From a virus, in IMG/VR virus record IMGVR_UViG_3300044641_001047, positions 1 to 64,000 of that record: a stretch of DNA of 64,000 nt; one strand, 5' to 3'. A program made the translations under genes and the position numbers. Below are positions 9,772-50,107 of the stretch, in pieces. Each line of letters starts with the position of its first letter. Position 1 is the first letter of the stretch. The notes under the pieces are model-generated. The model had not been told where the DNA came from, did no database searches, and saw only the letters and a program-made list of their open reading frames with translations.

Positions 9772-9793
9772 AAAGGGGCGAAAGCCCCTTTTT
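9772..9793. terminator. Bidirectional terminator between the convergent replication and virion modules
   Basis: AAAGGGGC-GAAA-GCCCCTTTTT, located between convergent stops at 9770 and 9802. Confidence 0.9.
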
Positions 9794-9801
9794 ATAGCCC
9801 A

Positions 9802-12800
9802 TTACATTGGAGCTCCTGTAAAGAATTTCAGTGCTTCCTCTGGAGTCTGTGACTGTTCGATACCTCTTAAGATTGGTATAAGTTTTTCAGTCATAGCTGC
9901 AGTTTTAGAATCTCCTCTAACATGAACACCAGACTTTCTTTGATAATAAATATCTTTTTCTATCCCATCTAATTCGTACCCGAATAATTCTCCTGTCCTG
10001 TAAGGCAGTTCTCTTACCACAAGTTGCTTTAACAATTTAGCAGCATCTACAATTGGACGTAGAGTTGCACTTGGAGACATGATGAATCTATACATATCAG
10101 GTATTCCAATTACTGGGATAAACTGCCCTAATTCTGCATTCATTCTCAAAGCTTGATAAGCAAGGAATGGAGTTACATATTCATCATCATCGTCATCTTT
10201 GAGAGAGCTGACAAGTAAACTTCCAATTGCCATAGTTGCAAGCCACATACTAAGTTCTGTTGCAGTTTGTTTTACATTAGCTTTCTCCATCGGAGTCATA
10301 GCCTTGAACACAGACCCGAATTTAAATCCTCCTTGTACTACTTCGTTTATATATCTGCCAAAGCTTATATACATACCTTCAGAGATTGTATCGGTCTCAA
10401 GATCTAAGTGTAGCTGATCTCCGTATCCAAATCTCTTTCTAAGACCAGGTTGGAAGTATCGTCTGAACAGCAAAGCCATCTTACCATACCATCTTCTGTT
10501 TGCCATTGGGTCATCAAACTTAGTCTTGATCTGGTTAGTTCTTTTGTACATCCCCGATACAAGGTTGATGTAGTTTATCTTCTTAAAGTTTGCAACTTTA
10601 GGGTCTATTCTCCATTTACCTTTTTCATCTTGAATATAAACTTCGTATAGATTAGCAGGCTTGCCCTCTTCATTTAAAATAACATTGCCTGCTTTATCTT
10701 TAAGTTTACCTCTGTACGAGTCGGCTAGTGCTAGTCCTCTAGTTACAGCAGTTTCGTGTTCTGCTGCACTTTGCAAGAAGAACAAAGAGCTCTTATCTAT
10801 AGCTTTAACAATTCTATTTCCAGTTCTCTTATCTCTAAAGTCTTCTAGGCTATCTTGAAGGAGATCAAAGTCATCTATAAATCTGGCAAGCTTCGAAGTC
10901 TTTTTAAATTTACCAGCATCAGTTACAGACTCTCCACTAAAAAGTGCTTTTGTATATGTACTCTTTGCCCAGAATAAGTTTGACTTATTTACAAATCTTC
11001 CTGAGATTGCCTCTTCTATAATTTTTTCATTATCGATAAAGTATTGGTTGGCTGCTTGAAGAGCATTCAGTGCCAAAGCATTCATAGCTGTGAAACTTAC
11101 TATCTTGTTAGATAGTTTATTTACACTAATTGTTTTTCCAAATATGTTTAACTCTTGCTTAAGCTCTTCTTCACCAAAGAATATTCTATCTATAAATTCT
11201 GTAAGATGTTTGAAGTTATTAGACTGCTCATCTAGTCTTCTACTTTGACGAGACAGCCCAAGTTTATTAGCAGCATGGCTGGCAAATGGAATGTTATTGG
11301 CTGTTACGTCAAGTACTTCTCTACGTTCAATGATATCTCTCATCACGATTACAGAGCCAGCAATTTCTGACTTTCTTTTAAACATATTTGCCATTCCAGC
11401 AAATGTTATTATCGTGCTCCCGATATCGTGGCTAACATACTTAGCATCTGTTGGGGTCGTAAAGTTGATAGGTATGATTTTATTTCTCTGCTCTTTGTTA
11501 GCATTTATAGATGCCCCATATGCATCATCAGTCTCAAGAAACGTAAACCCTCTAGTTGTGTAGTCCTTAAGAGAAGAGAATACATTGTAGTTATCTTGCT
11601 GAAGTCTTTCAAATCCTTCTGATTCTACAGACGGCACTGCATAAGATATAGTATCCCAATCATTTTTAATTTGATTATTAGGACCTAGGTATTTCTGCAT
11701 TCTAGTGTAAACCTCAATAAGCTTATCATAGTAAGCTTTAGTTGCTGGATTACCATTCTGTATTGCCTCATACTTTGGGTTAAGATACTTATCATTAGGG
11801 CGTACAACTGTTCCCTTGAACTGATCATTCAATTTGTCATACATAGCATTAGCTTGAGACCTAAGTTCTATAAGTCTAGCTTCTGCAATAGCATGCTTAT
11901 CTGCATCTGGTTCTCTCCCTGAAATATAGTGCTTTTGTACAAGAGCTTTTACCTCTTCAATTTTCTTCCCTATCTTATCAAACTCTTTCTTACCTTCTTC
12001 TGTTAATCTTGTATTGGTCTTATACCAACTAGCTACATCTCTGTAGTATGCTGCTCCCTTTGCTGACCTTTTCCATTTGAGATACTCATCTCTGTCTACG
12101 TTCTTTGGCTTACCGTGCTTTTCAGCAAGGCTCTTCTTCATAGCATAGAGCTCAGAGTTAAACTTAGTCACATCGTACTTCTGTACAAGTGTTAAGATCT
12201 CCATTGGCTTTCGTCTTCCTGACTCAGGATCAAGAACGTAGTAAGTATGTGTCTCAAGTATGTCAGAGTTAAACTCTACTGGGTTGATTCCAGTTCCTTT
12301 AACTGCAGCAAATGCTTCGTAGGATGGAGCTAGCTCATCAACAATTTCTCTTACATCGTCAGATGCTTGGTACAGTTTGCTTTTAACCATAGATCCAAAC
12401 AGCTGAATAGATATCTGAGAAGAGTACATTATAGGATCCATGTACACTGAGTATCCACTCTTATCTGTCTGTGCATCTCTTAGCTCACTGATCAAAGTCT
12501 CTCTACCAACTATCTTATTTTTAATCTGCTCTGTATTAAGTTTAACAACAGCAGCTTTAAATTCTTCTTTGGTTAATTTTTTATCTTCAAGTTGCTTTTT
12601 TAACCTCTTATACCTATCATCTTTTCTTAGATTAAATGTCCGTTGATTGTCGGTCATGTTCTGAACAAGATCTTTAATCTCCTCGTTTATTCCATCTGTC
12701 ATGTAGTCAAGTAGAAGGTCAACTTGGAGGGGAATGGCTTCGTCTATATAAAATTTTTGCTGACGCTCTAGTTTATTTATAGATTCTAAAAGCTTCTTTT

Positions 12801-14364
12801 CTACTACTGATAATGCAGAGTTAGACTTATTGCTTTTAGCAAGCTCTTCTTGCTTACTTATAATAATGTTCTTTAGTCTCCCTATAACACTATCTTCAGC
12901 AAATGTCCCAGCTGTTAGATCTTTAATATTATTCCCAAGATTAAATAACTGATTAGATAATGCATGTTTTTCTGCTTCCTCTAATTTATCGTACTTGCCA
13001 TCAAATCTTTTTATTTTATCTACGATCTCTTGGTTCTTAGCTGTTACACGGCCTACATAGTTTACAAATCCTGCAAAAGCTTCTATCCTATTGAGGGTTG
13101 TATATTTGTTTTTAGATTGTTCATCTTTAAACTTATAACGTAACTCTTTGAATTTCTCAAGCTGAGCCTTTAGTTCTATAACATCCTCATCACTCTTGAA
13201 AGGATTAGACTCAAGTTTATCTAGCTGTTGTTGTAAAGTTTCACTTGTTACTTCAAGGAAGTCATTAAACTCCCTCATCTTTTTATCGAGTTCTCTACTT
13301 TGCTGAGTTTCCTTTGAAAGCTCCCCTACAAGTTCTTCTTTAGATAATCTACGACTAAGAAGTTTGGTAACCAGCTGATCTACTGCAGAGTCTGATATCC
13401 CGAATATCTCTTTAATTCTTCTGATCAGTTTGTTAACAGCTGTCTGCAATTTGTTACTAGGCTTAGCAACTCTTTTAGCCCCTTCTCTTCCCAACATAGT
13501 TATAAGAGTTTCTTTTGCCGCAGCCTCATCTGTAAATCCATAGACTTCTTTAACCTCTTCAAACAATGCAGACTTTTTTGCAATCTCCATTGCTTGTTTA
13601 ACCAATGGGTTGTCTACCCCAAGAAGGTCTATAAGTATATGACTGAACTCGTGTATGTGAGTATCAGCTGTCATCTTCAGAGGGTTAAGAACTACCTTAG
13701 CAGTATTCTGATCTACTCTGCTAACCTCTCCCTTACTGTCTATATCGGTGCTAAACTCTACCTCGACAGTCATACCTACCTCAGCAAATGTTTCTTTAAG
13801 ATGCTGTAGCTGTTCCTCAAGGTTTGGAATGTCTTCAAATGGAGCATCACTCTTAAGAGCCTTAGATTTATCAATAGGTTTTTGCTCAAACAATGCCAGC
13901 TGCTTCCCTTCTCTAAGAGATTTAATCTGAGAGAGTATAATATTCTCATCCTTAGTAGGAATAACAGCTTGCCTTGAAACAGATATAGCTCCTTCATAAT
14001 AAGACGGATTAATAGACAGTTTTGCTGAATACCCCCCTAATTTAGTATGTCTTATAGAATCAGGGATAAGAAAATTTTGAGACATCGATTTAAGTGAATT
14101 CCCAAAATGCAGTAGTACTGTATTGTTTATTCTCTCAACTATGGTTCCTTTTCCATTTGGGTGCCCTTTATATATAATGCTTCCGTCATTATCGTATTTA
14201 AAGTGTTGTGGGAATCCATCTACCAAAGCATCTTTGATAATTCTGTTTGCCTTATCTAAAGGAACAGATGAGTCTAAGCTCTCAATTGCACTGAAAACTT
14301 TTTCATATGCTGGAGATGGCTCTGGATATTGACTTAAATATGTTTCGTAAACTTTACAGCCCAT
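9802..14364 (-). CDS. Giant virion-ejected protein (third of the vRNAP trio) with zincin-like HExxH domain
   Basis: 1520 aa, helical/charged. HIHEFSH motif (HEFSH at 13639-13653), hydrophobic segment near the C-terminus. Directly downstream of vRNAP. Confidence 0.75.
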   Translation of the reverse strand: MGCKVYETYLSQYPEPSPAYEKVFSAIESLDSSVPLDKANRIIKDALVDGFPQHFKYDNDGSIIYKGHPNGKGTIVERINNTVLLHFGNSLKSMSQNFLIPDSIRHTKLGGYSAKLSINPSYYEGAISVSRQAVIPTKDENIILSQIKSLREGKQLALFEQKPIDKSKALKSDAPFEDIPNLEEQLQHLKETFAEVGMTVEVEFSTDIDSKGEVSRVDQNTAKVVLNPLKMTADTHIHEFSHILIDLLGVDNPLVKQAMEIAKKSALFEEVKEVYGFTDEAAAKETLITMLGREGAKRVAKPSNKLQTAVNKLIRRIKEIFGISDSAVDQLVTKLLSRRLSKEELVGELSKETQQSRELDKKMREFNDFLEVTSETLQQQLDKLESNPFKSDEDVIELKAQLEKFKELRYKFKDEQSKNKYTTLNRIEAFAGFVNYVGRVTAKNQEIVDKIKRFDGKYDKLEEAEKHALSNQLFNLGNNIKDLTAGTFAEDSVIGRLKNIIISKQEELAKSNKSNSALSVVEKKLLESINKLERQQKFYIDEAIPLQVDLLLDYMTDGINEEIKDLVQNMTDNQRTFNLRKDDRYKRLKKQLEDKKLTKEEFKAAVVKLNTEQIKNKIVGRETLISELRDAQTDKSGYSVYMDPIMYSSQISIQLFGSMVKSKLYQASDDVREIVDELAPSYEAFAAVKGTGINPVEFNSDILETHTYYVLDPESGRRKPMEILTLVQKYDVTKFNSELYAMKKSLAEKHGKPKNVDRDEYLKWKRSAKGAAYYRDVASWYKTNTRLTEEGKKEFDKIGKKIEEVKALVQKHYISGREPDADKHAIAEARLIELRSQANAMYDKLNDQFKGTVVRPNDKYLNPKYEAIQNGNPATKAYYDKLIEVYTRMQKYLGPNNQIKNDWDTISYAVPSVESEGFERLQQDNYNVFSSLKDYTTRGFTFLETDDAYGASINANKEQRNKIIPINFTTPTDAKYVSHDIGSTIITFAGMANMFKRKSEIAGSVIVMRDIIERREVLDVTANNIPFASHAANKLGLSRQSRRLDEQSNNFKHLTEFIDRIFFGEEELKQELNIFGKTISVNKLSNKIVSFTAMNALALNALQAANQYFIDNEKIIEEAISGRFVNKSNLFWAKSTYTKALFSGESVTDAGKFKKTSKLARFIDDFDLLQDSLEDFRDKRTGNRIVKAIDKSSLFFLQSAAEHETAVTRGLALADSYRGKLKDKAGNVILNEEGKPANLYEVYIQDEKGKWRIDPKVANFKKINYINLVSGMYKRTNQIKTKFDDPMANRRWYGKMALLFRRYFQPGLRKRFGYGDQLHLDLETDTISEGMYISFGRYINEVVQGGFKFGSVFKAMTPMEKANVKQTATELSMWLATMAIGSLLVSSLKDDDDDEYVTPFLAYQALRMNAELGQFIPVIGIPDMYRFIMSPSATLRPIVDAAKLLKQLVVRELPYRTGELFGYELDGIEKDIYYQRKSGVHVRGDSKTAAMTEKLIPILRGIEQSQTPEEALKFFTGAPM

Positions 14365-14374
14365 GTTATTTATT

Positions 14375-17300
14375 TTAAAGCATACATATTTGGGTGATGT
14401 CCCCTTTTTTCTCTTCGTCCATTGTGTTATCTAAGAAGACATCTAACTTCTCTATTACAGAATCTATTGGCTTACTTTTTCCTACAACTCTTGGGTAAAG
14501 AGTAGCTCCCCCAACAAGGTGTTTTTTTTCGTTAGTAGTTTTACCTAACACCATATACTTTCCTATTTTTCCATCTTTTGATATACTACCAAGAATATAA
14601 ACATCAGAGTCTGTTTTAGTTCTAACTACAAGAGCTGAAGGAATAGATGAGTATTCTTCTAAATTGATATCAATTTCTTTATCAGGCTTTCCTACTTCAT
14701 CAAAGTTTTTACGTTGTAAAAGGTTACTTCCACCAGGTCTCATCTCCCCAAATATTCTTAGGAATCTAAGCATATCCTCCCCCTCAAAGTACCTACCATT
14801 AGCCATTTTCATTGCCTGCTCATGAAGATAATCAGAAATGCTTATAGGTTCTAGATCTTCAGCGGTTCTATCCATAGGTTGGGTAAGGAATCTTGGGGGT
14901 AACAAGTCTGCAAAGTTAAATGGAGTTTGCTTAAATCCATTGGCAATAAGTGTATGCATTGCTAATTTATTACCTAAAGTCTTGATATCTTCAACTCCTT
15001 TCTTACGTTCAGCTATTTCTTTTTCTGTTGCCCCCTTTCTAAGTCTTGGTAAAAACTTCTCAGGTCTGTACAACATATCAGTAAGGTCATTGATGATTCT
15101 ATCCTTCTCATTTACTGTATACTGTTGCTGAGCATCAAACTGCAAGCTTCTAAAAGTCTTACTATTCTTGTTATCAGGATCTTCAGTAATCTTTACAAAG
15201 AACTCATTACCTGCAAGCTTAGGGTATTTCTTTAAAATCATGGACATCTGCTTAAGCAGTGTTGACTTGTTTTTACTTGTACGATAGTTCTCATCACTAT
15301 ACCCTTTACCAAAAAATGCTTTGAGTGGAGAGTCCTGCCTTGTAAGAATTGTGAATATTATTGCAGAGTTTATATCTCTGTGCTGATCACTTGTAAATGT
15401 ATTAGTAGGTGGAGCTGCTATCTTTCTCAAAGTATTCTTAAATCCTATGAACTCAGATGATAATGTCATTGGGAACAGTATTGATGCTACCCCTAATGTT
15501 TCAGATATCATTTTATAGTAGCCTCTCTGTAATCCATATGGAGAATCTTCATCAAGAACTTGTTCGATTATACTCTCTGACATATTTCTTCCGTATAGAG
15601 CTATAGGGGCATTGTCTACAAATCCATCTTTAGGGTTTGCAAACTTTTCCATTCTCTCCATATAGGCCTGCATAGCTTCTACTCTATTCAAACCATCCAT
15701 GCTATCAGGAGTAATGACCTTAAACATTTCTACAATCTGTCTTCCTCCAGAGTACATCTTCATAAAGTTTCTTAAAGCTACTGCAGGGGGTAGAGTAAAA
15801 TTCATTATATCCTCTCTAGACATTGCAGTAGTCCTTTCAATTCTTTTATAATTATTTGCTATCTCAGTCTCTGGGTTTATACCGTGTAGAGCAGCAGCTT
15901 GACGATACCCATTGTTAACCATTGCAAGGTTATTGTTGTACTTATCAGACATTATGTTTACAAAATCTCTGATGATAGGCTGGTTAAGGAAGAAGTGCAT
16001 TAACTCTGTATCACCGTAGAAATTAATCCATAGAACTTCTACAGGGAAAGTAACTTCATTATCATTGATGATGTAGTGGAATGGATTCTTAGAAGCATCC
16101 ACGGCAGCATTAAGATATCGAGAGATAATTTTATCTGTAAATTCCAAGTGATCGTATGCTGCAAATGGGTTATCTACTTGAGTAAGAAACTTAGTATTTA
16201 TTTTCTCTCCTGCTATCTTAACAGCAAATGAGTCAAATAGATTTATGTCTAAGTGTTGAGCTACATTCCTTCCTGCAAGAGCATTAGACCACTTACCTCT
16301 CAGCTTGTTACCAAGAAGGTTTCTAACAGCACTGTTGGTATGGTACATACCCCCTGTAAACATTGGGATATCTTCAAGGTCAGGCATTTTTTCAAGGATA
16401 CTGTCTTTGATATTACCAAGTGCAGCTGTGTCCAAAGGGCTAAGAGTTTCAGAGAAGTGAATAGGGCTACTGAGTACAGCCTCCATTGTATCAATGAAGA
16501 TATTATTAAGCTGCTTCTCATTTAGTTTTGTAACCAATTCAGGATTGCTGGCAAGTTCTGCATAATTAGCAGATTCTTTAACCATAACCCCATCCTTCAT
16601 GCTAACCTCAGGGAAAAGCAAAAACATTTTATCGACGTCAAAGTCAGATCCCATAAGCTTAACAAGCTGTGGTGGGACTACAATTGCTTTAGCATAATTA
16701 TCAGGTAGGACAGCTTTAATCTTTAGAATAACCATAGATGCCTTATCCTGGTTGGGGATACGATAACCAATAATTCTTCTAAGCTCTTCTGGGATGTTAT
16801 CTAAATTGATCTCCCCTTCAGGTAAGTTAAACTTTCTAAGTACATCAGCTCTTATCATTATCTCTGCATGTGCCAATCTGACTCCATACTTTGTATTGTT
16901 TGGATCATCTTCAATCTCCAAGAACTTAAGGGTTTCATTAGTCTCAAACCCACCAAGAGCTGCAGTCTGCACAGCCTCTGTCCCAGATAGCCTTTGCTTA
17001 AATACATTGTTGTTGTATATGCTAAGCAAAGCTGATTGAAACTTTTTACCAAATACAGGGTAGTCAAGTGGAATTGCAAATCTTGGGATAAGAGTATCAG
17101 GATCTATAGTGATATCAAGAGCATCTAGATAGTTCTGGCTCATATCTCTTTCGATAGCCTGCTTCTCAAGAATGGTACGTATATTTTTAAGCAGTTCTAG
17201 CTTAGCATTTATAAAATCTTCTGAGCTCTTAAGGTGACTGATATTAACCTTACCCTTAACCTTATGCCCTTCTACAAGATTAGCAATTGCTTTACGGAAT

Positions 17301-20300
17301 TTATCTAATCCAATCTCCTTATCTACACTTTCCATATCCCGTCGAATCTTCTCTTCGATGGCATTGTGGTAGATTTGAGTCATTACATCTCCGACAACTT
17401 CTACAGAACCTTCTAGACCTGAGTTATAGTAATAGAGTCCAGCAGGATCTACGTTAGCAATAGAGTTTTTCTTAGCCTGTCTGTTAAAGATTACATCACT
17501 TGTACCTTTAGGATCAGGTATTATCTGTGGGAATCTTAGTTTAGAAGAGTCTTGTTTAATGATTACAACGTCTTCCATCATACCAGGTCTGTACCTTTCT
17601 ACCTCTTGTCCATTCTCATAAACAATCTCAGTATTCTTTGACAGATTGTAAGGCTCAGTCTTTAAACTCTTCTTAGTACTGAATGCATTAAATACATGGA
17701 CAGGCTGCAGATCATTTCTTCCTGCATAAGCCCCAGACAACTCCATACGTTGTCTTACATCATCCATGATTGGGAAGCTTCTTGTATAATCTTCTACAAG
17801 TGGGAAGTAGGCATTCTTCTGAATCTCTGTCAGAAGTACTCCACCTACACTTTTAACATCTTCATAGTAAGGCTTAAGAGGTTTAATGATTACAGGATCT
17901 CCAGCTTTCATTCCTTTAGGGACAAAGTTTTCTTGATATACAATACCTCCAATACTTCCTCTTTTCTTATATGCTCTGAATGCTTCTATCTCATTTTCTC
18001 CCCACTCTCCTAATCCTTCAGCTATGTATCGATACATATCAATACTGATAATAGCCAGACCATCGGTATCTTCAAAGGTGCCAGGGTTATAGCCTAGCAT
18101 GAATGCTATGTCATCATCTGTATATGGGTCTCCAGTCTTAGGGTTAATTATAGATTTAAGTTTTCCCATAGTACGAGATACATACGATTTTGAAAACTCT
18201 TCTATTGCTTTAGTTATATTACCCCTTGGGTCAAGGAATGTAGATTCATTGAATTCTGGGATCATACCATACTCTTCAACTCCGTCAGCTGGTTTTACTC
18301 CGAGTGTACCTCTGATAGCAGTCAATGTACCTGGAGTTCCAAGTAGTCGTTGACGTTTAGTAAAGGCATCTAGAGAAGCAAAAGCAGCTCTGTTACCACG
18401 AGTAAGCTTTATAATTTCTGCAGTCCCTACATCCTCATGAATAATAAACTCTTTTAGAAGACCTTTTATTGTAAGGACTTTCTTCATCACAGCAGTATCT
18501 TCTTTACTCAGTCCTTCCAAAGCTTCTGCTTCATCAGCTTCCTTTAACTTTGAAAACCTTTTAGCTTCTTTAAGATCTACATCCCCATATCTTCCAGACT
18601 GTATAATCTTTTTTGCCATTACTTCTGCAGCTTGATCGTAGAATAGAGTAAGATTTGAAATCATCTGTGACATTAAATTCTCAAACTGCTTTAAATCTCC
18701 AGTAGGAGTTTCACCAGCTTTTTTAACTTTAATGTAATCTTCTACATAGTCAGACATTTTCATCTGAACCCCATTAGATTTAATCATATAGTCCTGGACA
18801 ATCCTTTCACCAGTCTTACTATTAATTCCATCTAATTGCATGTACTTACCTGACCCGTCTATACCAAGCATTTTACCTGTATGATAATCAATAGCTTTAG
18901 TAGCATTTGGATCATCAATAGTCCTTTGAGCTTGTCTGATTCTCAATAGGTCTTGAAGAATCATATCTCTAAATACCAGAGAATTAGTCTTATAGTCTAG
19001 TTTAGTGTTACCATGGCCTCTAAGTCTAGGCATAAGCATAAACTCTAGATCCTCACGGTCTGCTTGAGTTGGAATAGCACAATAGAAATAATCTTCTTTT
19101 CCATTATTTATAAAGTGATACAGCCTTGTAAATATGTGGTCAATAGTATTGAAGTTTCCATATGCTTCTCCCTCTGCCTCATCAGCTCTTTTGATTACGT
19201 CTGCACTTACAGTACGTAGATCACTGAGATATTGAGGGTTTAGGATCATATGTCTATAGATCATACTATATCCATCCGTACCACTTTTATGATCATGAAT
19301 GTGAAATGGGTCAGTCTTTTGCAACTTAAGTGCATTCTCCCCATTCTTCTCTACATCGGTTTTAATATTAATAATTATGTCGTCAACAGGAGTTCTATGT
19401 TGAATAGGCCATATAGCCTTCCCTTCTCCATTAACGTGGCTCTCTGCAGAGTTAGACATAAACAGTGGGGCCAAGCTTCCTAGGAACTTTACACCAGATT
19501 TCTCTGTATCAAAGAATGGTGTTATATCCTTTTTAGTGTCTCCAAAAAGAGGAACCCCTTTAGAGTCTGTCTCAACTTCAACAAAAGAACTAATTATCGA
19601 GTAAAGACCAGAGTTTTCTACGATATAATCGAAGAGGCCTTTACCATTTAATTTTTCAAGACCCTTTTTCTTCTGCCTTACATACATACCTGCACTCATA
19701 AGACTCTGCAGGTTGTCAATTGTCTCATCTATATTGTAGTCATTCCCAAAGTTAATTCCTAAATTCCATAAAGTGTTAGCTAAAGCTATCACTGCTACTG
19801 ATGGCTCCCCTTCTTTACTAGGAAGAAAGTCTTTGTCCTGACTTGATCTCTTCTTACGAATCTCTGAAAGAGTTTTAAATGACTCTTTTACTGCTTCAAG
19901 TTTACTTTTATTTACAGTAAATGTAGATTTATCTTCTCCCTGTTCATTTTCTTCTACATTTTTATTGTATAGGGCTCTACTTTCAGAGTTTTCAATTGCC
20001 TGCCCATCTACTTGTATTGCATTATTTCTCCATTTTCTTACAGCTTTCTGCTCTGTAGTAGTAACATTAGAGTCAAAGATTTTACTCTTCTTCCCCATAA
20101 TTACAATATGTGTCTTATTTACTGTAGTAGCAAAGTTGCTGAACAGTGCAGACTTCTCCTTAGGACTCATTCTTCTTATGCCACGAGCAATAGATTTATA
20201 GTCATCTCTATGCAGGGCAAAGTTTTCAAGCTTTATCATCATTTCCTCAAACGTCCCTGTATCTGACCACAGTTCTAATAGCTGCTTGTATACAAAATTA

Positions 20301-21823: not shown

Positions 21824-21825
21824 GT

Positions 21826-24800
21826 TTATTTTTTCTTTTTATTACAAAGTTTATTTACAACTTCCTCTTGTATTTTTTTAGCTTCTTTTTCATTAATATC
21901 TATATCCAACATTTGTTTTACAAAAAATACAAAAGAGGCATTGTCCATAGCACCCATTTGAATTATTTGAGCTTTTAATTGAGCAGCACCATCACCCGAT
22001 GGGCCATTTGAAGCTTTTGCAGATATTATAGATTTTGCAATATTATCCTTAGTAATCTCACCTCCGTCCTCAGTTGAAGTATCTTCATCCTCATCTTCAT
22101 CTTCTTCAACTTCTCTTACCTTCTTAGTAATATTCTTTACAGGACTCTTCTTTTTAGAGTGGTTGGCAATAGCTGGATCGGAGCTTTTCTTAGCCTCTTT
22201 GTAGGCAAAGCTTACTTTTTTGTCTAGTACGTCTCCAAAATTAAGATTCAAAGTAAACTTCTTTTCTACAAAGTTACTAACTTTTAAGATAGTTCCATCA
22301 TCATCATACCTTAAAGGTATAAGTAAGGTACTTCCTTTTCTAACCATTGTAGATACATTGTTCTGTTTAGCATGCCCGTTGAACATATAAGCATAAACAC
22401 TTAGCTGTGCACCATGCTGGTCTCTCTTTGATCTACCATACTTAGTCTCCTCGTAGTTTTCAAGTCCAGAAGCTGTAAGAGTTTTTATATCATATATACG
22501 GTACTCCCCTTTTCTATCCTTAGTAAGAATGTCAAAGGTTCCAGCTATGTTTGGGTAGTTAGGATCAGTGTTGTATACAACCATCTCTACAGCAATTACT
22601 GTTTCTCCTCTTCCCCTTAGCATGCTTTGGATAGCTTTAGCTTGAGTTATAAGGTCGAGATAAGCTACTGAGGACACACCAGCTGGTTTAGTAGCAGGCT
22701 TACCCATAAGTAGGTTTTCAACTAAAGAGTGTACTAACTTACCAGCAGATGATGAGGCTTTCTGAGTTTCAGCAGATCCAGTAAATGGTTCTGATGTCAT
22801 CTTGGATGCCCTTTCGTATTCCTCCCCATTGATAATGTAATGAGTTTCCTCCCCTGTCACGGGATCTTTTTTCATTTCTTCACGGTGTTGATTCTTCTTT
22901 ATATCAGTAAGAATCTCTACCATAGGATCCCCTTTCTCCTCTTCTACCTCAGCAATAGTTCCACTAAGTCCTTGGCTTTTAATCTTTTTGCCAACAACTA
23001 CTTTTTCGTCATCTTCTTCTGTCTCTACAGTTTTAGTTCTTCTACGATTGATAGCCTTTTCCAGAGAGCTTGAATTGCTATCAGTATCTTCTTGTTCTTC
23101 TTCCTCTTCCTCCTCTATTCTCTTAGCTACTTCTCCAATTTCGTCATCATCTAGCAAAGCATTAGTAGAGTCAACTTGGTTGTCCTCCTCATCCATATCG
23201 GATTCGTTTGTATAATCCTCCTGCTCTTTAACTAAAGGTTCTTGTTTGGTAATCTTAGCTTTAGTTACTGTTCTAGAAGTTGTTGGCTTTTCATTTTCTG
23301 CAGCCTGTGCCTTGAATCCTTTTTCATCTGTAATCTCCCCAAAGTTCATCACCACATCAAAGTATGGGGAGAATGTTTTAGGGTTAAGATACACATCAGA
23401 GCTAAGTATACCTGAGTGTCCCTGATCTTTTTCCATATCAGAGATTTCATCAGGGTGAGTTAAATAGTCTAAGTAAGAAGCATATACTAAGCCAGTTACT
23501 TTACTTTCGTATTCGGGGTTTTCAGTTAGAAGGTTAATATCTACTTGATACCTTCTCTTCATTATAGCCTCTTTAAATGCAGAAGCTATTGATCCCATAT
23601 GAGCAGTCCAGTCACTTCTTCCTTCTATTGGTTCAAAGTTTAGACCTCCTTCTTCACCTCTTACTGCTTCTACAAATTGGAATTTAACAAAGCTATCAGG
23701 TTCAGTTAAAGCTAGAGCTAATTGGTCAGAGCTAATAGTAATATAAGTTTCTGCAGAAGGTAGCCAGAAGGTATAGCCTCTTGGAGCTTCTGGGTCAGAC
23801 TTCTCACCATATACTTGTTCAAAAATTAGGTTCCTATTTGCATCATCAATAGCAGCTTCTGCAACTTCGTTGAAACCTACAATCTCTGCTACATCTCCAG
23901 CTCTATCATCTGTAATAGCTTCTACTACTGCATTGTATCCAACCTCAGTCATTTTCTTGGTAGTAGCCCTTATATAAGACAGATCTCCATTTGGGGTACG
24001 AACCAAGATTGCCACTTTACCTAAGTCAGCAGTTGACAATCGTGACAGCAAGTCACCTGGGATTGTTTCATCCTCTTTAAGAACATCCCCTCGGTTTGTC
24101 ACCTCCCACTTTGGTTCTTTTTTGTAGGTTCTAGCAACAAGCAATGTAGGGGTATAAAGTATATTCCCATCTTCATCTACTGGGACAGGATCAAAGAAGA
24201 ATACATTGCCATCCTCAGTCGCTGCATTAGCAATGTTCTGAGAGTCTACATATTTATTAGTAAGAATGGTTGTAGGAATTTTGCCGTTATCCCAAAGATT
24301 GTAGATAGTCTCCCTATCCATAGATCTGCTAGGATTAGAAGGGTTATAACCTTCAAGCAATCCAACTCTTTTAAATCCATCTTTTGTTCTAACTGCTACA
24401 AATATTGGAATGTTTTTCCAGTATTCTGACTCAGATACATTTGGATTATTTTTTACAAATTTCTGCCACCACTCAGTTTCTGGATTAACTTCAAATCGTA
24501 CTTCTGCACCATTTTCTACTATGTCAGAATCAGTCAATAGCTCAGGGAAAATTTGAATTGGAACCCATTTACCATTTTTTAATTCAAACTGTTGTCTTCC
24601 ATCTTTGCCATTAGTTCCATAGTAAGAACTATTAGGAATCGGAGTACCATCCTCGTCAACAAGAATATTATCATAACCGTTAGCATACTCATGTTGGGTT
24701 TTAATTACTGCGATGCTACTCTGGTTCTCTGAATTTTTAACTTCTTCATGAACCGTTTTCTTTCTAAATTGAATGTTACCCTCATCCTCTTCTGGATCTG

Positions 24801-27800
24801 AATCATCAGGCGTCTCTTCTTCTTCCGTTTCAAAACTTTTTGAATTGAATATATCTTGTGTTTCTCCAGTTTCTATGAATACTGGGTTGTCAATTATTTC
24901 AGGGAGTAATGGTGCTACTTCATTTACGTCCACTGTTTCGCCTTCAGGTACTTGAACAGCTCCTTGATTCGTTGTTCCAGATCCTTGTTCTTGAGCAAGT
25001 TGCGAAGCTCTTTGGGAGTCTTGTACATCTTTGCTAGCTTGACTTGATTTTCTATATTCATACTCTTCGGTTAACTTGTTTTTATGACTCTGTTGAATTT
25101 CTCTTTCAGCTCTTGCAACTTCTAAATCTTTTGTAAGCTTTTCAATCTTTTCTCCGTTTACAGGAGAAGCCATTCCTAGTTTTATACTTGCATCTAATGC
25201 TGCAATTTGCTGCTCAAGCCCTATAATAGTTTCGTTTGCAAGATCGATTAAAAGTTCAGCTTCCCCAATTTTATTTTTAATTTCATTCTCAGCTTCCTCA
25301 GACATTTGACCACCTTGATCTTCCGTAGGTTCACTAACAGGAGACAACTGTGTTCTTTTAAAGTAATCTTTAGTTATGGCTTGGAATGCTTTAAGAGTTG
25401 TAGAATACATTGCTCTTGCTCTCTGCACATCTGGATCTTGGTTCATTTCGGCCATGGTCTTACCCTGCCTCATGAACTTCTCCTTAGCCATATTATAAAC
25501 AGAAAGGATGTCAAGAAGATGAGTTCTATGACTATCCATCAACTTCTGTAAAGCTTTATCAGTTATAACATTAGGATCGTACTTAGCCTTACTTCTTAAT
25601 GCCTCAGATAAATTTTGCAATGCATTAAGTCTAGATTGAATCTGCTTTCTAAGTTCTACTTCACTAAGTCCTAAGCTTTCTATAGTTCCTTGAGACTGAT
25701 AAGCCATCAGGATTATCTCTGCAAGTTCTTTTGCAACAGTATCTTTAAACTCAACTGTTTGGTTTTGCTCATTGTGCAGTACTACTTGAGATACTATAAT
25801 AGAACCTGTAAGAGCACTAGCGGGTTTATATTCTGTTATACCCTCTGTCTTAATATCTTCTAGCATCTGTGGATAAGATGCAGCATGCCTATCTATTGTC
25901 TCATCGGATACATTTGCTCTGTTAACTCCTGCTGCGATATCTGCTTTTATTCTTTGTTTAGCTAATTCAGCATTTAAAGGCATTAACTTATACTGAATAT
26001 TAGCACCAGGTATTGCTTTTTTAACAGCCTCTATAAACGGTCTTCTTTTTTCTTTAGTTAAATTGGTGGTATCAAATACCACCTGTTTACCATTCTTCAC
26101 AGCTTCTACTGCTCTTTTAGCAGCTTCAATGTAAATTTCTTTATCTTTAGATTTATCATTTATATCTCCTGTAAACTCAGCTCTCATATCATCAGGAGAA
26201 ATAACTACTAAATTTTCTTGAGGTAAACTTTTTATAAAAGTAGATTTCCCACTTCCAGAAGTTCCTATAGGTAAAATAATATCAGCTTTAGTAGTCGTAG
26301 AGGTGCTGCTTGTTTTAGGTTTAGAAGAAGTAATCTTTTTACCTAATTGTTGTTCTACATGCTTTCCAATTATGTCAACAAATTCATTTGCTAACTGATT
26401 AGTAAGTGCAGCATATCTTTTTTCTACAGCTACAGTTCTTCTATCAGCAGAAGATATATCAGTAGTATTTATTTTACTTAACTCTCCTGCTAAAGGTCTT
26501 AATGCATCTAGTCTTTTTTTATCCTCTTCACTAAGAAAATCAAACTCATTAAGATTTAAGTCTGCTAATACAATTAAATTATCAGCAACTTTTCCCATTG
26601 AAGCTTTAAAAGCATTTAATCTACCTTTAGGCCTAGCTCCTTCATAAAAATCAGATGGCAATACTACTTTAGCATTTCCATAGCCATCTAATCTTTCATT
26701 AAGTCCTTCTATAGGTGTTTTTGTGTTATCATCTGCAGCAGGAGTTTCAGACTGCATGTCCCATTCATAGCCATACCTAATAGCATCTACTGGGTTTTCA
26801 TTAAGGTTCTGATATACTGTCCCGTTAACTCTTATTGTTCTTCCATCGGTACTAAGTAATGCAAAGCTATTTTCATAAACCTTCCCACTTAAATCTGGAT
26901 CTGCTTTCTCATCAGCTTCTTCAGAGAATCCTTTCTTAAGTGCATCTTCTGCTTCTTTCTTAGCAGCTGCTTCAGCAGGAGTTAACTCTCCTTCTTTTAT
27001 ATCTTTCTGCTCAAGACTTTCATTTTTCTTAGCTTCAAGAACAGCAAGTAGTGCTGCAGCTTTAGCAGGAGATTCTTCTTCAATACTTTCAATATCTGCA
27101 ACTAACTCTTCAAGAACCTCCAGTGGGATGTCTTGATAGTCTTTCATGTACTTATCCTCTATAGCCTTAAGCTCTTTATATTTCTTTCTAACCTTAGCTT
27201 TCATTTCAGGACTAAGGTTTTCATGATCTATAAGTTCATCAAGTTCTCTAGTAGAATCTGCATTGTCAACAATTGAGTCAGCTTCTTTATTTGACTTTGC
27301 TACTTTAGCTCGTTGCTCAGCAGCTTGTTTAGCAGCTAGAACAATTTCTCTTTTTTCTGGAGATTTTATCAGCTCGTCAAATGCAGTAGATGCAAGTTCT
27401 CTTGTATATATTCCTGTAATAAAGTCAGCAAGAGCCTTATCAAAGTCCATCTTCTGCAGCTTATCTAAGGTTTCAGATTCTTCTACTGCTGTCCTAAGAG
27501 CTCCAGTTAAACTTTCATTCTCTTTAATATTCTTCTTCTTTGCAGCCTCTTCCGTGGTTGGGTCAGGCTTTGGTTCCCCTTCTTTCTTCTCTTGCTCCTC
27601 TACATCACTAACACTTACGTCAACCAAAGATTTAGGGAGAACTAGATTACCCTGTGCATCTGCTGTTATTTGGTTTCTTTTTATTAGAGTTACAAGTTTA
27701 TTTCTGTCAAAATTTTTAAGAGCTGGAGATAGAGATACTAGTTTTTCATATGCATCGTTAATCTCCTCATCTCTAGTCTCCATACTAATCATGTTAGTAA

Positions 27801-29766
27801 GGAGTATATTTTTAAGTCTTTGATTGTATAGATCTTGGGCAGCTTTTTGAATTTTCTGCTCTTTGTTCATGGTTAGTTTAGCAAGTCCAGATTGATTAGG
27901 GCTCATAAATTGAATAATGTTATCCAATCTTTTCCCCATATCTGAATACTTCTTCATCTCTCCTTTCCACTCTTCTACAATCCCTGACTGAGTTTTACCT
28001 CCTGATTGCTCCAGTAATGGCTTAGACTTATCATAGCCATTTAAATCCATGAAGTCAGCTTCAGGCATTTTGGCCATGTCATCTAGTTTCTCATAAGCTA
28101 GATCTATAGCATCGAGATTATCAAACATGATTGCATGCTGAGCCATGAAGTTTTTACGTAGCTCGTTTGCAAGCTTGTAGTTACCAAGATCAGTAGCAGC
28201 TTTTAGAGCAGCAGAGAATTGTGCTAATTCCTTTTTCTGCTCAAAGCTCTTTCTCATGTTTAAGAAAGTCTCAGAGTTTGTAATGGCCAACAGCTTTTCT
28301 GTATTAGCTTTAACCATTGCTCTTTGTTTAGCAGCTGTTCCAAATGATGTGCTGGTTGCACCCATACCTCCACCAATAAGAGCACCTAGCAGCATGCTCT
28401 CTATTCCATCTGCAGTTCCAAAGGTTTTAGATAGCCCTCTTACTGCAGCTCCTGTCATATCTTCTACCCCAGAATCAAATTTATTCTTGTAGTAATCTAT
28501 TGCAGTCTCTCCAATCATGAACTGAGCACCTTCTTGGAAAGCCTCTGTTAAAGAATTCTCATAGATAGGGGCTGTATATTTTTGAGCTCTATTTAAAAAT
28601 CTTCCAACTCCCGTTGTTGGAAGAGATACTATTCTTTTACCTGCTTGGTCTAAAACAGTTTCTGCTGTAGCTCTTTCCCCAATTTTAACTCCTCTTGCAG
28701 CATTGCCAAACATTAAAAGATTGCTAGTCATAAGAACAGGCATATTCCACCCAAAAGTAAAGTTCTCTACAGCTCTAGCTTCTTCATTTATCCTCTCTCT
28801 ATCACTAGCAGGCATATCCTCTAATGACATTCCTGGGTTATTCTCAAGCCACTCAGACTCTCTTTCCTGAATAAATTGTTTAGACTTTTCTCTAGCTTCT
28901 ACAGAAGACTCAGCAAGAGACATCATGGCCCCTACTTCTAGAGTTTTAGCAGCATTTAAGGTTCTAGCTATATTCCCATATTTAGCAATATCAGCGGTAA
29001 GTTTTGTACCAGTAGCTATCATTTTAGAGGCAGCATATATATTCTTCATAGCCTCCCCTGTAGACACAAGTTTACCTACTTGTCCTGCTCTTCCTGCTGC
29101 AGCCATAGCTTTACCAGCTAAATTAACACCTCTTCCTAATAGCCCAGCTCCACCACTCATCCATGCAGTTGCTAATGATCCTAGTGAATATCCTAATCCA
29201 TTGGCAAATTTATCTGTCCAAAAGTTAGCACTTCCTAAGTTATCCAGCATGCTACGGTCTGGATCTAACTCTGCTTTAGTGTAGTAGTGTGGAAGGTTTT
29301 CACTCATCCATTCATTTGCACTATCTACACTTCTTCCTACAGGATTATTTGCATATGTACCTCCAGCAAGCATAGAGCCTATTCCCCCGATAATACCTAT
29401 GGTATTTTCTGCTACTGCCCCTACTATAGTGGCCCCCATTTTAAGAGCACCGTATCCTAACTTTTGACCAATGCCTTGGTTCTCTGCTCGAATCTCATTC
29501 CAGTCTGCATATGGACTAAGAGGGACTTTATAGCTAGCATAGTTAGCTATTGGATCAGTATAGACATTTGTAAGATCTATAGATCGTGCTTGTAAGTCTA
29601 GACCAGAAAGTTCGTATGGAGATTCCTTAGCCTTAGGGGCAAGTGGTTCACCTACAAATTCTGAGAAGCTACTTAGAGCATCTTTTGGCTTAGATAATTC
29701 TTTTACTGGTAGTCCAGTAAACTTACTAAAACTTTCTAATGGTGCACTTTCTGTTGGTTCTGCCAT
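21826..29766 (-). CDS. Giant virion-ejected multidomain protein: N-terminal membrane-like helices, internal P-loop kinase domain, C-terminal PD-(D/E)XK nuclease domain
   Basis: 2646 aa. Gly/Ala hydrophobic helices in the first ~480 aa; GTSGSGKST/SPDDMR/VFDTTN kinase motifs; GKLVH..AGTFD..YDIKT..QLSVY nuclease motifs; acidic linkers. Confidence 0.8.
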   Translation of the reverse strand: MAEPTESAPLESFSKFTGLPVKELSKPKDALSSFSEFVGEPLAPKAKESPYELSGLDLQARSIDLTNVYTDPIANYASYKVPLSPYADWNEIRAENQGIGQKLGYGALKMGATIVGAVAENTIGIIGGIGSMLAGGTYANNPVGRSVDSANEWMSENLPHYYTKAELDPDRSMLDNLGSANFWTDKFANGLGYSLGSLATAWMSGGAGLLGRGVNLAGKAMAAAGRAGQVGKLVSTGEAMKNIYAASKMIATGTKLTADIAKYGNIARTLNAAKTLEVGAMMSLAESSVEAREKSKQFIQERESEWLENNPGMSLEDMPASDRERINEEARAVENFTFGWNMPVLMTSNLLMFGNAARGVKIGERATAETVLDQAGKRIVSLPTTGVGRFLNRAQKYTAPIYENSLTEAFQEGAQFMIGETAIDYYKNKFDSGVEDMTGAAVRGLSKTFGTADGIESMLLGALIGGGMGATSTSFGTAAKQRAMVKANTEKLLAITNSETFLNMRKSFEQKKELAQFSAALKAATDLGNYKLANELRKNFMAQHAIMFDNLDAIDLAYEKLDDMAKMPEADFMDLNGYDKSKPLLEQSGGKTQSGIVEEWKGEMKKYSDMGKRLDNIIQFMSPNQSGLAKLTMNKEQKIQKAAQDLYNQRLKNILLTNMISMETRDEEINDAYEKLVSLSPALKNFDRNKLVTLIKRNQITADAQGNLVLPKSLVDVSVSDVEEQEKKEGEPKPDPTTEEAAKKKNIKENESLTGALRTAVEESETLDKLQKMDFDKALADFITGIYTRELASTAFDELIKSPEKREIVLAAKQAAEQRAKVAKSNKEADSIVDNADSTRELDELIDHENLSPEMKAKVRKKYKELKAIEDKYMKDYQDIPLEVLEELVADIESIEEESPAKAAALLAVLEAKKNESLEQKDIKEGELTPAEAAAKKEAEDALKKGFSEEADEKADPDLSGKVYENSFALLSTDGRTIRVNGTVYQNLNENPVDAIRYGYEWDMQSETPAADDNTKTPIEGLNERLDGYGNAKVVLPSDFYEGARPKGRLNAFKASMGKVADNLIVLADLNLNEFDFLSEEDKKRLDALRPLAGELSKINTTDISSADRRTVAVEKRYAALTNQLANEFVDIIGKHVEQQLGKKITSSKPKTSSTSTTTKADIILPIGTSGSGKSTFIKSLPQENLVVISPDDMRAEFTGDINDKSKDKEIYIEAAKRAVEAVKNGKQVVFDTTNLTKEKRRPFIEAVKKAIPGANIQYKLMPLNAELAKQRIKADIAAGVNRANVSDETIDRHAASYPQMLEDIKTEGITEYKPASALTGSIIVSQVVLHNEQNQTVEFKDTVAKELAEIILMAYQSQGTIESLGLSEVELRKQIQSRLNALQNLSEALRSKAKYDPNVITDKALQKLMDSHRTHLLDILSVYNMAKEKFMRQGKTMAEMNQDPDVQRARAMYSTTLKAFQAITKDYFKRTQLSPVSEPTEDQGGQMSEEAENEIKNKIGEAELLIDLANETIIGLEQQIAALDASIKLGMASPVNGEKIEKLTKDLEVARAEREIQQSHKNKLTEEYEYRKSSQASKDVQDSQRASQLAQEQGSGTTNQGAVQVPEGETVDVNEVAPLLPEIIDNPVFIETGETQDIFNSKSFETEEEETPDDSDPEEDEGNIQFRKKTVHEEVKNSENQSSIAVIKTQHEYANGYDNILVDEDGTPIPNSSYYGTNGKDGRQQFELKNGKWVPIQIFPELLTDSDIVENGAEVRFEVNPETEWWQKFVKNNPNVSESEYWKNIPIFVAVRTKDGFKRVGLLEGYNPSNPSRSMDRETIYNLWDNGKIPTTILTNKYVDSQNIANAATEDGNVFFFDPVPVDEDGNILYTPTLLVARTYKKEPKWEVTNRGDVLKEDETIPGDLLSRLSTADLGKVAILVRTPNGDLSYIRATTKKMTEVGYNAVVEAITDDRAGDVAEIVGFNEVAEAAIDDANRNLIFEQVYGEKSDPEAPRGYTFWLPSAETYITISSDQLALALTEPDSFVKFQFVEAVRGEEGGLNFEPIEGRSDWTAHMGSIASAFKEAIMKRRYQVDINLLTENPEYESKVTGLVYASYLDYLTHPDEISDMEKDQGHSGILSSDVYLNPKTFSPYFDVVMNFGEITDEKGFKAQAAENEKPTTSRTVTKAKITKQEPLVKEQEDYTNESDMDEEDNQVDSTNALLDDDEIGEVAKRIEEEEEEEQEDTDSNSSSLEKAINRRRTKTVETEEDDEKVVVGKKIKSQGLSGTIAEVEEEKGDPMVEILTDIKKNQHREEMKKDPVTGEETHYIINGEEYERASKMTSEPFTGSAETQKASSSAGKLVHSLVENLLMGKPATKPAGVSSVAYLDLITQAKAIQSMLRGRGETVIAVEMVVYNTDPNYPNIAGTFDILTKDRKGEYRIYDIKTLTASGLENYEETKYGRSKRDQHGAQLSVYAYMFNGHAKQNNVSTMVRKGSTLLIPLRYDDDGTILKVSNFVEKKFTLNLNFGDVLDKKVSFAYKEAKKSSDPAIANHSKKKSPVKNITKKVREVEEDEDEDEDTSTEDGGEITKDNIAKSIISAKASNGPSGDGAAQLKAQIIQMGAMDNASFVFFVKQMLDIDINEKEAKKIQEEVVNKLCNKKKK

Positions 29767-29767
29767 G

Positions 29768-32059
29768 TTAAAACTTTATTTTTCCTGTTCCTACTATTTG
29801 CTGTACATCTGGATCGTCGATTGCTCTAAACATTGTACTTGGGTTTCCATTTGCACTTTGGAATATAGGAGCACCTAAGTCATCAGAGAAACTTATTGTT
29901 GGATTATTATCTCCAACACTTCTAATAGTTAGTTTTCCAGGTACCTCTCTTGTATAAGTTTGATTCGTAAGCCTGTCTACTTCAGATTTTTCTATATAGA
30001 TATCTCTAGTGTAAATTTTAGGATTATTTACATTCCCACCTCTTGGGGCTTCCATTTGAACTACACTAGCAAGTATAACAGTTGGGTCACTAAGCTTTCT
30101 TAAAATTGGCAAGTTAGCAGTTAAGTAAGCCCCATCTACGTGTACTGTCTTGAATTTATTAACAGCATCTGGATTTTTAGTTTCTAGGATCATTTCCCAC
30201 GTATTGGTATTTGGATCCCATCCGTAATCTTTAACTACGAATCCATCTAGTATAGCAGGATTTGTTATCTTTTGTCCTGCAGATACGTCGTAAGCAGTAG
30301 GAATTGCTACAGCACTTATTGACTTTCCTAGTAAAAAGTCATCTAGAGCTTTTGTAATGGCTATATTTTCCTGGGCATTACCAGTTTGAATTGTTCCATA
30401 GTTGAATACAGAAGATGTTTTAATCTCTGCAAACTTTGCATCAATTTTATCTTTATATACAGATTTAAATTTGTCTACAACTACTTCCGAAGTATTTAGT
30501 TGTTCACCTATAGTTGCATCATAGTTATAGGTTCCTGTACCATATAAGTGAGCTTCAAGTGCTGTAGCACCGTATTTACTATTAAATATTTTCTCGAAGT
30601 CTTTATAATCTTGATCGTCTTTATTATCAAAGGTCGTTAAAATTCTCTGGTATATTTCACCTGGAGATGCCCCTTGCATTTGATCTTTAAATATACTTAC
30701 AATTTTAGGATCTTGTTTTTCCAAATCATCCATAGAAATAGAAGAGCCAGAGGCTTCATTTATTAAGTATTTCTGGTGATTTATCTTTGCAGTATTTGCT
30801 CTTTTTTCGGCAAGCAAGTTTTCTTTTTGTTTTTGAGATAGATTACTTCCTGGACCTACTTCTATGTCGATGTCCCTATTTCTAGCTTCTAGAGAGGAAA
30901 TGGTTTGCATTTTTTCACTAAGTGTTGCCCCACCTACCATATTTGCTGTTACCTCAGAATTTTTATAGATTGGTACATTGTTCTTAGCTGCCTCCATAGC
31001 TTCTTTTCTACGTTCCATGTAAATAGGATCATACTCGTATATAGTACTAGACTTAGTATTTTTATATGCATACTGCATTGCTAAATCCCTTGTAGGATTA
31101 ATTATCTCCTGTTCTATTTTGGATTTTACGTAATTATAAGATGTAGTAGGATCTTTAGCTGCTTCTGTGGCACTGTTTATCTCAGACTGCATTATATTTA
31201 TAGCCTTTTGATACTGTGCTTTTTCAGAAGCAGACATCGTTTTAGAAGCCATCTCTTTCTTATAACCTTCTATTATTTTACCATACTGGTCAATTGTAGC
31301 CTGTATGGTTTGTGGCATAGCTCCTGATTTTTGAATATCATATGTCCTCATATCAGCTTTTTGCTGAACGGCCATTTTAACATCAGGATCAGCCATTACA
31401 TAGTCAAAAGCTTTTTGAACCTCTTCTGGGGTAACCTGTTCAACTCCGTATTCGTTAGTTACTGTATACTTTCCGTCAGGTCCTACCGAAAGTTTGTTAC
31501 TTTTATTGTCGTACTTATCTGGTTTTATAATAGCTAAAGCTTTTGTTAGCTTATCCATTACATCTACATCATTGTAGATGGTAGGGGCAGAAAACATTGA
31601 ACCCTCTTTTACTCTTCCAGTATTAGGATCCATCTCGAATCCTTTATAGTCTCTGGTTATATATGAACCAGATCTAGCATAGGTTTCAGCATCAATGCTT
31701 TTCTTATCATACCTATCTTGTAGATCCTTTAGAGCAGCTTGATATCTATCGTAGTTTTCTTTTATAGGGGCATACTTTTTACTAAAATCTTTTGCTGCTC
31801 TGTGTACAGCAAACCCAAGATTCTCATAGTCACCTCTCTCTGATAGAGATGTTAGAGTTTTATCTATCTCACCCTGCAGTTCTTTTTTTCTATTAACATC
31901 ATTCTCAAATGGCAAAGCAGCCTGCATTTGATCTACTGCCAAGGCTAACTCATCATTTGCTTTAAAATTATCTAGATACCTATTACGTAGTATTTCAGAG
32001 ATCTTTACAGATTGAGGATCTACATAAGTACTGACATACTCACCAAACTGATACGGCAT
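29768..32059 (-). CDS. Putative internal virion (cargo/ejection) protein
   Basis: 763 aa, helical, no Cys seen. Lies between cargo protein 1 and the giant trio, as in other crAss-like phages. Confidence 0.65.
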   Translation of the reverse strand: MPYQFGEYVSTYVDPQSVKISEILRNRYLDNFKANDELALAVDQMQAALPFENDVNRKKELQGEIDKTLTSLSERGDYENLGFAVHRAAKDFSKKYAPIKENYDRYQAALKDLQDRYDKKSIDAETYARSGSYITRDYKGFEMDPNTGRVKEGSMFSAPTIYNDVDVMDKLTKALAIIKPDKYDNKSNKLSVGPDGKYTVTNEYGVEQVTPEEVQKAFDYVMADPDVKMAVQQKADMRTYDIQKSGAMPQTIQATIDQYGKIIEGYKKEMASKTMSASEKAQYQKAINIMQSEINSATEAAKDPTTSYNYVKSKIEQEIINPTRDLAMQYAYKNTKSSTIYEYDPIYMERRKEAMEAAKNNVPIYKNSEVTANMVGGATLSEKMQTISSLEARNRDIDIEVGPGSNLSQKQKENLLAEKRANTAKINHQKYLINEASGSSISMDDLEKQDPKIVSIFKDQMQGASPGEIYQRILTTFDNKDDQDYKDFEKIFNSKYGATALEAHLYGTGTYNYDATIGEQLNTSEVVVDKFKSVYKDKIDAKFAEIKTSSVFNYGTIQTGNAQENIAITKALDDFLLGKSISAVAIPTAYDVSAGQKITNPAILDGFVVKDYGWDPNTNTWEMILETKNPDAVNKFKTVHVDGAYLTANLPILRKLSDPTVILASVVQMEAPRGGNVNNPKIYTRDIYIEKSEVDRLTNQTYTREVPGKLTIRSVGDNNPTISFSDDLGAPIFQSANGNPSTMFRAIDDPDVQQIVGTGKIKF

Positions 32060-32064
32060 AGCTT

Positions 32065-49589: not shown

Positions 49590-49598
49590 GTTTATATA

Positions 49599-50084: not shown

Positions 50085-50107
50085 TAGATAGTTTTTGTAA
50101 AGATAGT

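Follow-up and report, generated by a model that had tools for sequence, protein, structure and literature searches.

Three giant cargo proteins of a crAss-like phage are probably, although by no means certainly, tied head to tail in the virion by cysteine-based covalent links, most likely disulfides. Their genes, here called A, B, and C, occupy positions 9802-29766 of a DNA stretch of 64,000 nucleotides (nt), referred to below as the window (positions 1 to 64,000 of IMG/VR record IMGVR_UViG_3300044641_001047). The source record is 76.5 kb long and is estimated to be 92% complete. Protein B is the virion RNA polymerase (vRNAP). The three proteins are almost devoid of cysteine except at the ends that face the neighboring gene product. 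This pattern is conserved among relatives, it co-varies with the fission and fusion of the genes, and it does not have its cause at the nucleotide level.

Cysteines of the Three Giant Proteins

The three genes are found at the end of a tightly packed block on the minus strand, with a gap of 2 nt between A and B and of 10 nt between B and C. Protein A (2646 amino acids (aa), positions 21826-29766), the proposed first link, has Cys2641 as its sole cysteine and none at the N-terminus. This residue lies six residues from the C-terminus (KLCNKKKK, codon at 21844-21846). Protein B (2482 aa, positions 14375-21823), the proposed middle link, contains Cys5 (MGISCP, codon at 21809-21811), the internal Cys915, and Cys2480 (QICML, codon at 14384-14386). 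Protein C (1520 aa, positions 9802-14364), the proposed last link, has only Cys3 (MGCK, codon at 14356-14358), and its C-terminus is without cysteine. Together they contain five cysteines per 6648 residues, and four of the five sit 3-6 residues from mutually facing termini, while both outer termini lack cysteine. For random placement, the probability that at least four of five cysteines end up in the 24 facing-terminal positions is 8e-10, a figure calculated post hoc. Three other proteins encoded in the window (763, 999, and 1048 aa) have no cysteine at all, in contrast to tail-region proteins, which are rich in it (16 in a protein of 508 aa and 12 in one of 177 aa). The sequence-only reading of the window had reported these counts and codon positions as well as the difference between cargo and tail proteins, and all of it could be reproduced.

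The closest counterparts of the block are g067-g066-g065 of phi14:2, gp47/gp50/gp49 of crAss001, and gp45-gp44 of crAssphage. They share with the window the gene order, a crass-type capsid, a vRNAP with a DFDxD motif, and a third protein carrying a zincin motif (protein C, as in phi14:2 gp65). In phi14:2 the last residue of g067 is Cys1797, the vRNAP g066 has Cys3 and Cys2179 only, and g065 has Cys3 only, so the trio has four cysteines per 5398 residues, all at facing ends. In crAss001 the sole cysteine of the A protein gp47 is Cys2339 (position -3, counted from the C-terminus), gp50 has Cys5, Cys1334, and Cys2404, and gp49 has Cys5. In crAssphage gp45 has Cys1956 (-2), while the fused gp44 has Cys3 and a C-terminus without cysteine. 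The terminal-cysteine pattern of crAss001 is intact even though gp47 is encoded on the strand opposite to that of gp50 and gp49.

All three proteins are known to be in the virion of phi14:2 by mass spectrometry according to its annotation notes, and the phi14:2 preprint also reports them there, adding that the fused polyprotein of some phages is "likely cleaved." Published work on the Crassvirales block has assigned transcription of the early genes to the vRNAP. Mass spectrometry similarly detects gp47, gp49, and gp50 in crAss001 virions, where their structures are unresolved and the exit order of the cargo is described as likely set by packing and interactions (PMC10172136). That A, B, and C are packaged in the virion of the phage studied here is suggested by homology to phi14:2 and crAss001. 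The crAss001 atlas contains nothing on the terminal cysteines of gp47, gp49, and gp50 (PMC10172136), and the words cysteine and disulfide are both absent from the text of the phi14:2 preprint.

Conservation among Homologs

Around relatives of the vRNAP 78 loci were fetched and scanned for open reading frames (ORFs), and 71 of these loci are distinct. Both cysteines are present at 87 of the 89 junctions between consecutive large genes in these 71 loci, at position -1 to -5 of the upstream protein and at residue 3 to 6 of the downstream protein, where N-terminal positions depend on taking the first ATG as the gene start, a call that the tight gene spacing supports. One of the two remaining junctions is an extra one with a cysteine-free upstream cargo gene (L056), and at the other the upstream cysteine is found at -16 (L071). 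Two loci, L066 and L019, are frameshifted assemblies in which the last fragments end in ..KKCK and ..KKKEC, so that the rule is kept also there. The 353,118 residues of these proteins contain 247 cysteines, of which 183 are located within 10 residues of a terminus, and only of facing termini, which leaves 64 internal ones (0.018%).

The individual proteins give the same picture. When 27 vRNAP homologs with identities down to 22% are aligned, the columns of Cys5 and Cys2480 are invariant, as are those of the three catalytic aspartates. Of the 111 B homologs, almost every complete one carries one cysteine at residue 3-8 and another at -1 to -5, and the number of internal cysteines is 0-2. The A homologs (P0156-P0186) have their sole cysteine at -1 to -4 in 30 of 31 cases, with an N-terminus lacking cysteine. 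In about 40 of 44 C homologs a cysteine occupies position 3-5, and the C-terminus is free of cysteine. The enrichment at facing termini across relatives, which the sequence-only reading had proposed as a check, is thus borne out both by the junctions and by the invariant vRNAP columns.

In one locus (L044:3238-7691) the C homolog is split into ORFs of 968 and 521 aa that overlap by 19 nt, and there is no cysteine at the break. An assembly frameshift probably accounts for this split, which, were it genuine, would contradict the junction rule.

Co-variation with Gene Fission and Fusion

The block is found as three genes (A|B|C), as two (AB|C or A|BC), and as a single gene (ABC). In the three-gene form A has only a C-terminal cysteine, B has one at both ends, and C has only an N-terminal one. 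The two-gene forms have exactly one cysteine pair, located at the single break, and the fully fused ORFs (5005, 5555, and, in one case, over 6415 aa) contain no cysteine at all. A B-C fusion (P0058) is also without cysteine. In three loci (L024, L033, and L043) the break between A and B has been relocated, and the cysteine pair is found at the new break.

When the split or fused state is compared with the presence or absence of the terminal cysteines, the two are concordant in 55 of 55 loci for the A|B boundary and in 64 of 64 loci for B|C. In a tree built from the vRNAP core, the state has changed at least eight times for A|B and at least five times for B|C, and the independent contrasts agree in 7 of 7 and 5 of 5 cases (12 of 12 in all); the tree comes from a quick LG+G4 search and has some long branches, so these counts are approximate. 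This comparison of sequences strongly supports the facing terminal cysteines as functional partners. Since the forms AB+C and A+BC fix the partners, the pairing would be A to B and B to C, in gene order.

Genes have been inserted between the partners in two loci. Two ORFs are found between the A and B genes at L042:8270-9804, one of which encodes 222 aa with four cysteines. The other is a stop-to-stop frame of 294 aa whose ATG product begins with MSC (Cys3) and ends with ..ENCL (Cys -2); judged from its sequence it looks like an extra cysteine-tipped chain link. In L067 a 169-aa ORF is inserted between partner genes.

Precedents outside Crassvirales

A single bond of the geometry proposed here has been resolved by electron cryomicroscopy in the pre-ejectosome of the cyanopodophage A4 (Anabaena phage A-4L), where Cys1715 of gp27 forms a disulfide with Cys5 of gp26 (PNAS 2025, PMC12002296). 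The C-terminal helix of gp27 is docked in a cleft of gp26 (PMC12002296). In the A-4L genome the two proteins (1717 and 1114 aa) are encoded by consecutive genes and these residues are their sole cysteines, while the neighboring gp29 has none. As in the window, they are cysteine-poor ejection proteins located inside the capsid, and their partner cysteines are C-terminal and N-terminal. By analogy with this structure, we infer that the bond in the crAss-like phages is a disulfide. A4 differs in having one link between two proteins, a pentameric ring, and no RNA polymerase, and its bond was presented as stabilizing one structure, not as a general rule (PMC12002296).

The second precedent concerns the absence of internal cysteines. 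Cysteine suppression has been reported for the ejected proteins of N4-like phages, with 0.00075% cysteine in the gp71 homologs, and has been ascribed to the fact that these proteins have to leave the virion and cross the envelope (PMC11445570). The ejection operon of these phages (Schitoviridae: N4 gp50, DEV gp71-gp73) resembles the block in the window in that a giant vRNAP and its companions are nearly without cysteine. However, the N4-like vRNAP is a single polypeptide of a different polymerase fold family, it has zero cysteines, and no terminal pairs have been reported (PMC11445570), whereas in the window cysteine has been purged everywhere but at the facing ends.

The sequence-only reading knew of no description of such a mechanism. 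This needs to be narrowed, as the single bond of A4 and the cysteine suppression of N4-like phages were both known (PMC12002296; PMC11445570). The literature searched described no terminal-cysteine rule in Crassvirales, and no chain of several links, with the vRNAP among them, that is conserved across crAss-like phages.

Structure of the Junctions

The last approximately 40 residues of B make up a tail that is variable in length and acidic in many homologs, and that ends with a hydrophobic residue, the cysteine, and 0-4 further residues. Near the ends the cysteine is the sole invariant or nearly invariant residue, and there is no conserved histidine, additional cysteine, aspartate, or glutamate alongside it. 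Cys3 of C is similarly the sole invariant column among residues 1-250 in 34 homologs.

An AlphaFold2 model of residues 1-250 of C has a mean predicted local distance difference test (pLDDT) score of 77.6. In this model Cys3 is placed just ahead of the first strand of a confident α/β domain (residues 1-150, positions 13915-14364, minus strand, block pLDDT 75-97), which is followed by a linker of low confidence (pLDDT below 50 at residues 153-179) and then by the start of the zincin domain. Searched against PDB with Foldseek, the model had no match at E <= 0.001 and none to an A4 chain, the matches obtained being weak and zincin-like, and the profile A3 gave only weak oligopeptidase matches and no A4 chain among PDB sequences.

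In the fused clade that can be aligned (L034, P0058, and P0076) homology to C starts only at about residue 146-190 of C, and the profile of the B tail stops about 10 residues before the end of B. A hidden Markov model of the N-terminal domain of C finds it in the close unfused clade only; its absence from the fused proteins is suggestive, not decisive. BLAST comparisons of fused and split relatives gave no alignment over the last 80 to more than 1000 residues of A, depending on the pair, or at the starts of B (30-210 residues) and C (150-190 residues). These observations and the model fit the N-terminal domain of C being a candidate docking module for the B tail, which a covalently continuous chain would no longer need. 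Rapid sequence change close to the termini could, however, give the same alignment gaps between fused and split proteins. A complex prediction for the C-terminal 150 residues of B together with the N-terminal 250 of C, with alignments of 34 rows each, scored 0.27 against a mark of 0.32 and counts neither way on binding.

A Probable Covalent Chain and its Alternatives

In the favored reading the vRNAP would be bonded through its Cys5 to Cys2641 of A and through its Cys2480 to Cys3 of C. The result would be one thread of approximately 6650 residues, equivalent to the single polyprotein of 5000-6400 aa found in some relatives. With the cysteine located 0-5 residues from the C-terminus or at residue 3-6, and an N-terminal overhang of 1-4 residues after removal of the initiator methionine, the joint would be nearly as slim as a peptide bond, which may suit passage through the tail. 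Such a chain would hold A, B, and C at a ratio of 1:1:1, ensure that they are packaged together, and set the order in which they are delivered through the tail, and the reducing cytoplasm of the host would then free them. Wrong pairings would be prevented by the nearly complete loss of internal cysteines. The sequence-only reading had proposed an ordered train of this kind, linked through cysteines. Its facing cysteines have held up as partners in gene order, while the disulfide, the ejection order, and the release in the cytoplasm are inferred.

Several points weigh against the chain. Disulfide formation is normally not seen in the bacterial cytoplasm, and many crAss-like phages live in the anaerobic gut. 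A family search found no thioredoxin gene in the 76.5-kb record; a search for the Erv1/Alr family also gave no match there, nor in any control genome, so that result is uninformative. The A4 proteins gp26 and gp27 have no sequence similarity to A, B, and C or to the 71 related blocks (blastp E >0.03), and the precedent is thus an analogy. Some tails overshoot the rule, the cysteine being at -9 in crAss001 gp50 and at -16 in L071. The dependence of N-terminal positions on the start codon chosen and the approximate nature of the tree, both mentioned above, belong on the same side.

It is unlikely that the facing cysteines are bridged by a shared metal ion (a clasp of Zn, Fe, or Cu) and not by a disulfide. 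The co-variation reveals pairing and not chemistry, and the reducing cytoplasm in which the proteins are synthesized would permit a clasp of this kind to form. However, each terminus offers a single cysteine without a conserved histidine, cysteine, aspartate, or glutamate beside it, and the only structure of such a pair, that of A4, displays a disulfide (PMC12002296).

We also find it improbable that each terminal cysteine acts alone, in contact with the portal, the inner capsid, or other cargo, or as a site of modification, with no bond to the neighboring giant protein. Other disulfide-bonded proteins do exist in crAss001 virions, among them a dimer of gp57 at the portal vertex and, in the tail, the hub and ring proteins (PMC10172136), although the formation of disulfides in these particles also speaks for the chain. 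Direct contact between A and B or between B and C is itself a proposal. Against this stands that the cysteines are always gained and lost in pairs across a gene break and never at the outer N- or C-terminus, a strict asymmetry that independent roles leave without a reason. The other internal cargo proteins, moreover, offer no cysteine to bond with.

There is only a very small chance that the genes are joined during translation, by frameshifting or stop-codon readthrough, and that the cysteine codons are a by-product of a nucleotide signal. A run of A residues does directly precede the stop codon of gene A (positions 21823-21846, AAG AAA AAA TAA AC ATG), from which a -1 slip would lead into the frame of the vRNAP. 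The run is not conserved in relatives, however, and a poly-lysine tail after the cysteine was not seen in the other A homologs examined. Further, intergenic spacings vary between -4 and more than 25 nt and favor no reading frame, TGT and TGC are both used, the flanking sequence is not conserved, and in L042 and L067 the partners are kept apart by inserted genes. Because crAss001 gp47 keeps its C-terminal cysteine while encoded on the strand opposite to gp50, a cause at the nucleotide level is excluded. Chance or composition, by which cysteine is simply rare in ejected proteins (as is known for the N4-like gp71 homologs, PMC11445570) and the remaining residues happen to be terminal, can practically be dismissed because of the conservation across homologs, with cysteine columns invariant down to 22% identity, in addition to the restriction of 183 of the 247 cysteines to facing ends and the window probability of 8e-10. 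All four alternatives are ranked well below a disulfide-linked chain.

Two other candidates were rejected. A split intein with protein trans-splicing does not agree with the lack of any Pfam domain at either junction, and the 0-5 residues beyond the cysteine are too few for an intein (Hint) fragment. Lipidation of the terminal cysteines was also set aside.

A wider and more tentative reading, which we would not bet on at present, is that the cysteine-tipped ends constitute a general modular joining system of crAss-like phages. The joint would then be a redox-cleavable substitute for the peptide bond, allowing giant ejected polyproteins to be split, re-fused, and extended by further cargo modules with their order kept in one protein train, which would be threaded through the tail and unclipped by the host cytoplasm. 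This possibility is raised because the junctions shift between lineages, because the enzyme domains of A vary, and because the 294-aa ORF of L042 is cysteine-tipped.

Gene Block and Genomic Context

B was identified as the vRNAP by a profile of 27 homologs that matches PDB 6VR4 (phi14:2 gp66) with an E-value of 1.5e-62, and tblastn with B matches the annotated RNA polymerase genes of crAss001 and crAssphage. As single sequences neither B nor C has a match in PHROGs or Pfam, phmmer of B against PDB gave only noise, and Megablast gave no match among cultured phages. The catalytic motif DFDVD is found at residues 1727-1731 of B (positions 16631-16645, minus strand), with Asp1727, Asp1729, and Asp1731 invariant. 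The zincin motif HEFSH of C comprises residues 238-242 (positions 13639-13653, minus strand); HEFxH is kept in the homologs, and fold searches gave weak matches to zincin-like proteases.

Protein A carries a passenger domain resembling P-loop kinases (AAA_33 or polynucleotide-kinase-like) at residues ~1160-1300 (positions 25867-26289, minus strand), with the Walker A motif GTSGSGKS at residue 1168. In homologs of the giant proteins (P0132 and P0175-P0200) Pfam finds a PDDEXK nuclease, NADAR, a zeta-toxin-like kinase, NUDIX, a 2OG-Fe(II) oxygenase, or LysM in place of this domain. The ejected chain thus seems to carry a variable enzymatic payload.

Upstream of A the genes of two cysteine-free putative cargo proteins (763 and 999 aa, positions 29768-35064, minus strand) lie outside the proposed chain, and all homologs of the 763-aa protein in the related loci are likewise free of cysteine. 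The cysteine-free 1048-aa protein (positions 55951-59097, minus strand) has a sub-threshold Pfam match to DUF192 at residues 51-137 (E-value 1.6e-4, 22.2 bits against a cut-off of 27). The cysteine-rich pair from the tail region is encoded within positions 48063-50132 (minus strand); the 508-aa protein starts with MPICLDCI, and the 177-aa protein ends with IETCACGC. A major capsid gene of the crassvirus type is found at positions 53296-54720 (Pfam Crass_capsid, E-value 1.5e-82). Directly past the stop codon of C a GC-rich hairpin, GGGGCTTTCGCCCC, followed by a T run can be read from the sequence (positions 9775-9788, minus strand), and this is likely a putative terminator closing the block.

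Significance for crAss-like Phages

No viruses of the human gut are more abundant than the crAss-like phages. For the storage and delivery of their cargo, roughly 700 kDa of protein that includes the polymerase with which infection starts, a conserved pair of cysteines at each protein boundary provides a concrete hypothesis that can be tested in the cultured phages phi14:2 and crAss001. If the chain reading holds, the split genes would be functionally equivalent to a fused polyprotein because A, B, and C would form one covalent chain. This would account for the free fusion and splitting of the genes and for the purge of internal cysteines, as well as for a fixed stoichiometry and order and a release that needs no protease. 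The single bond of the cyanophage A4 would then turn into a wider principle for the ejection proteins of podoviruses.

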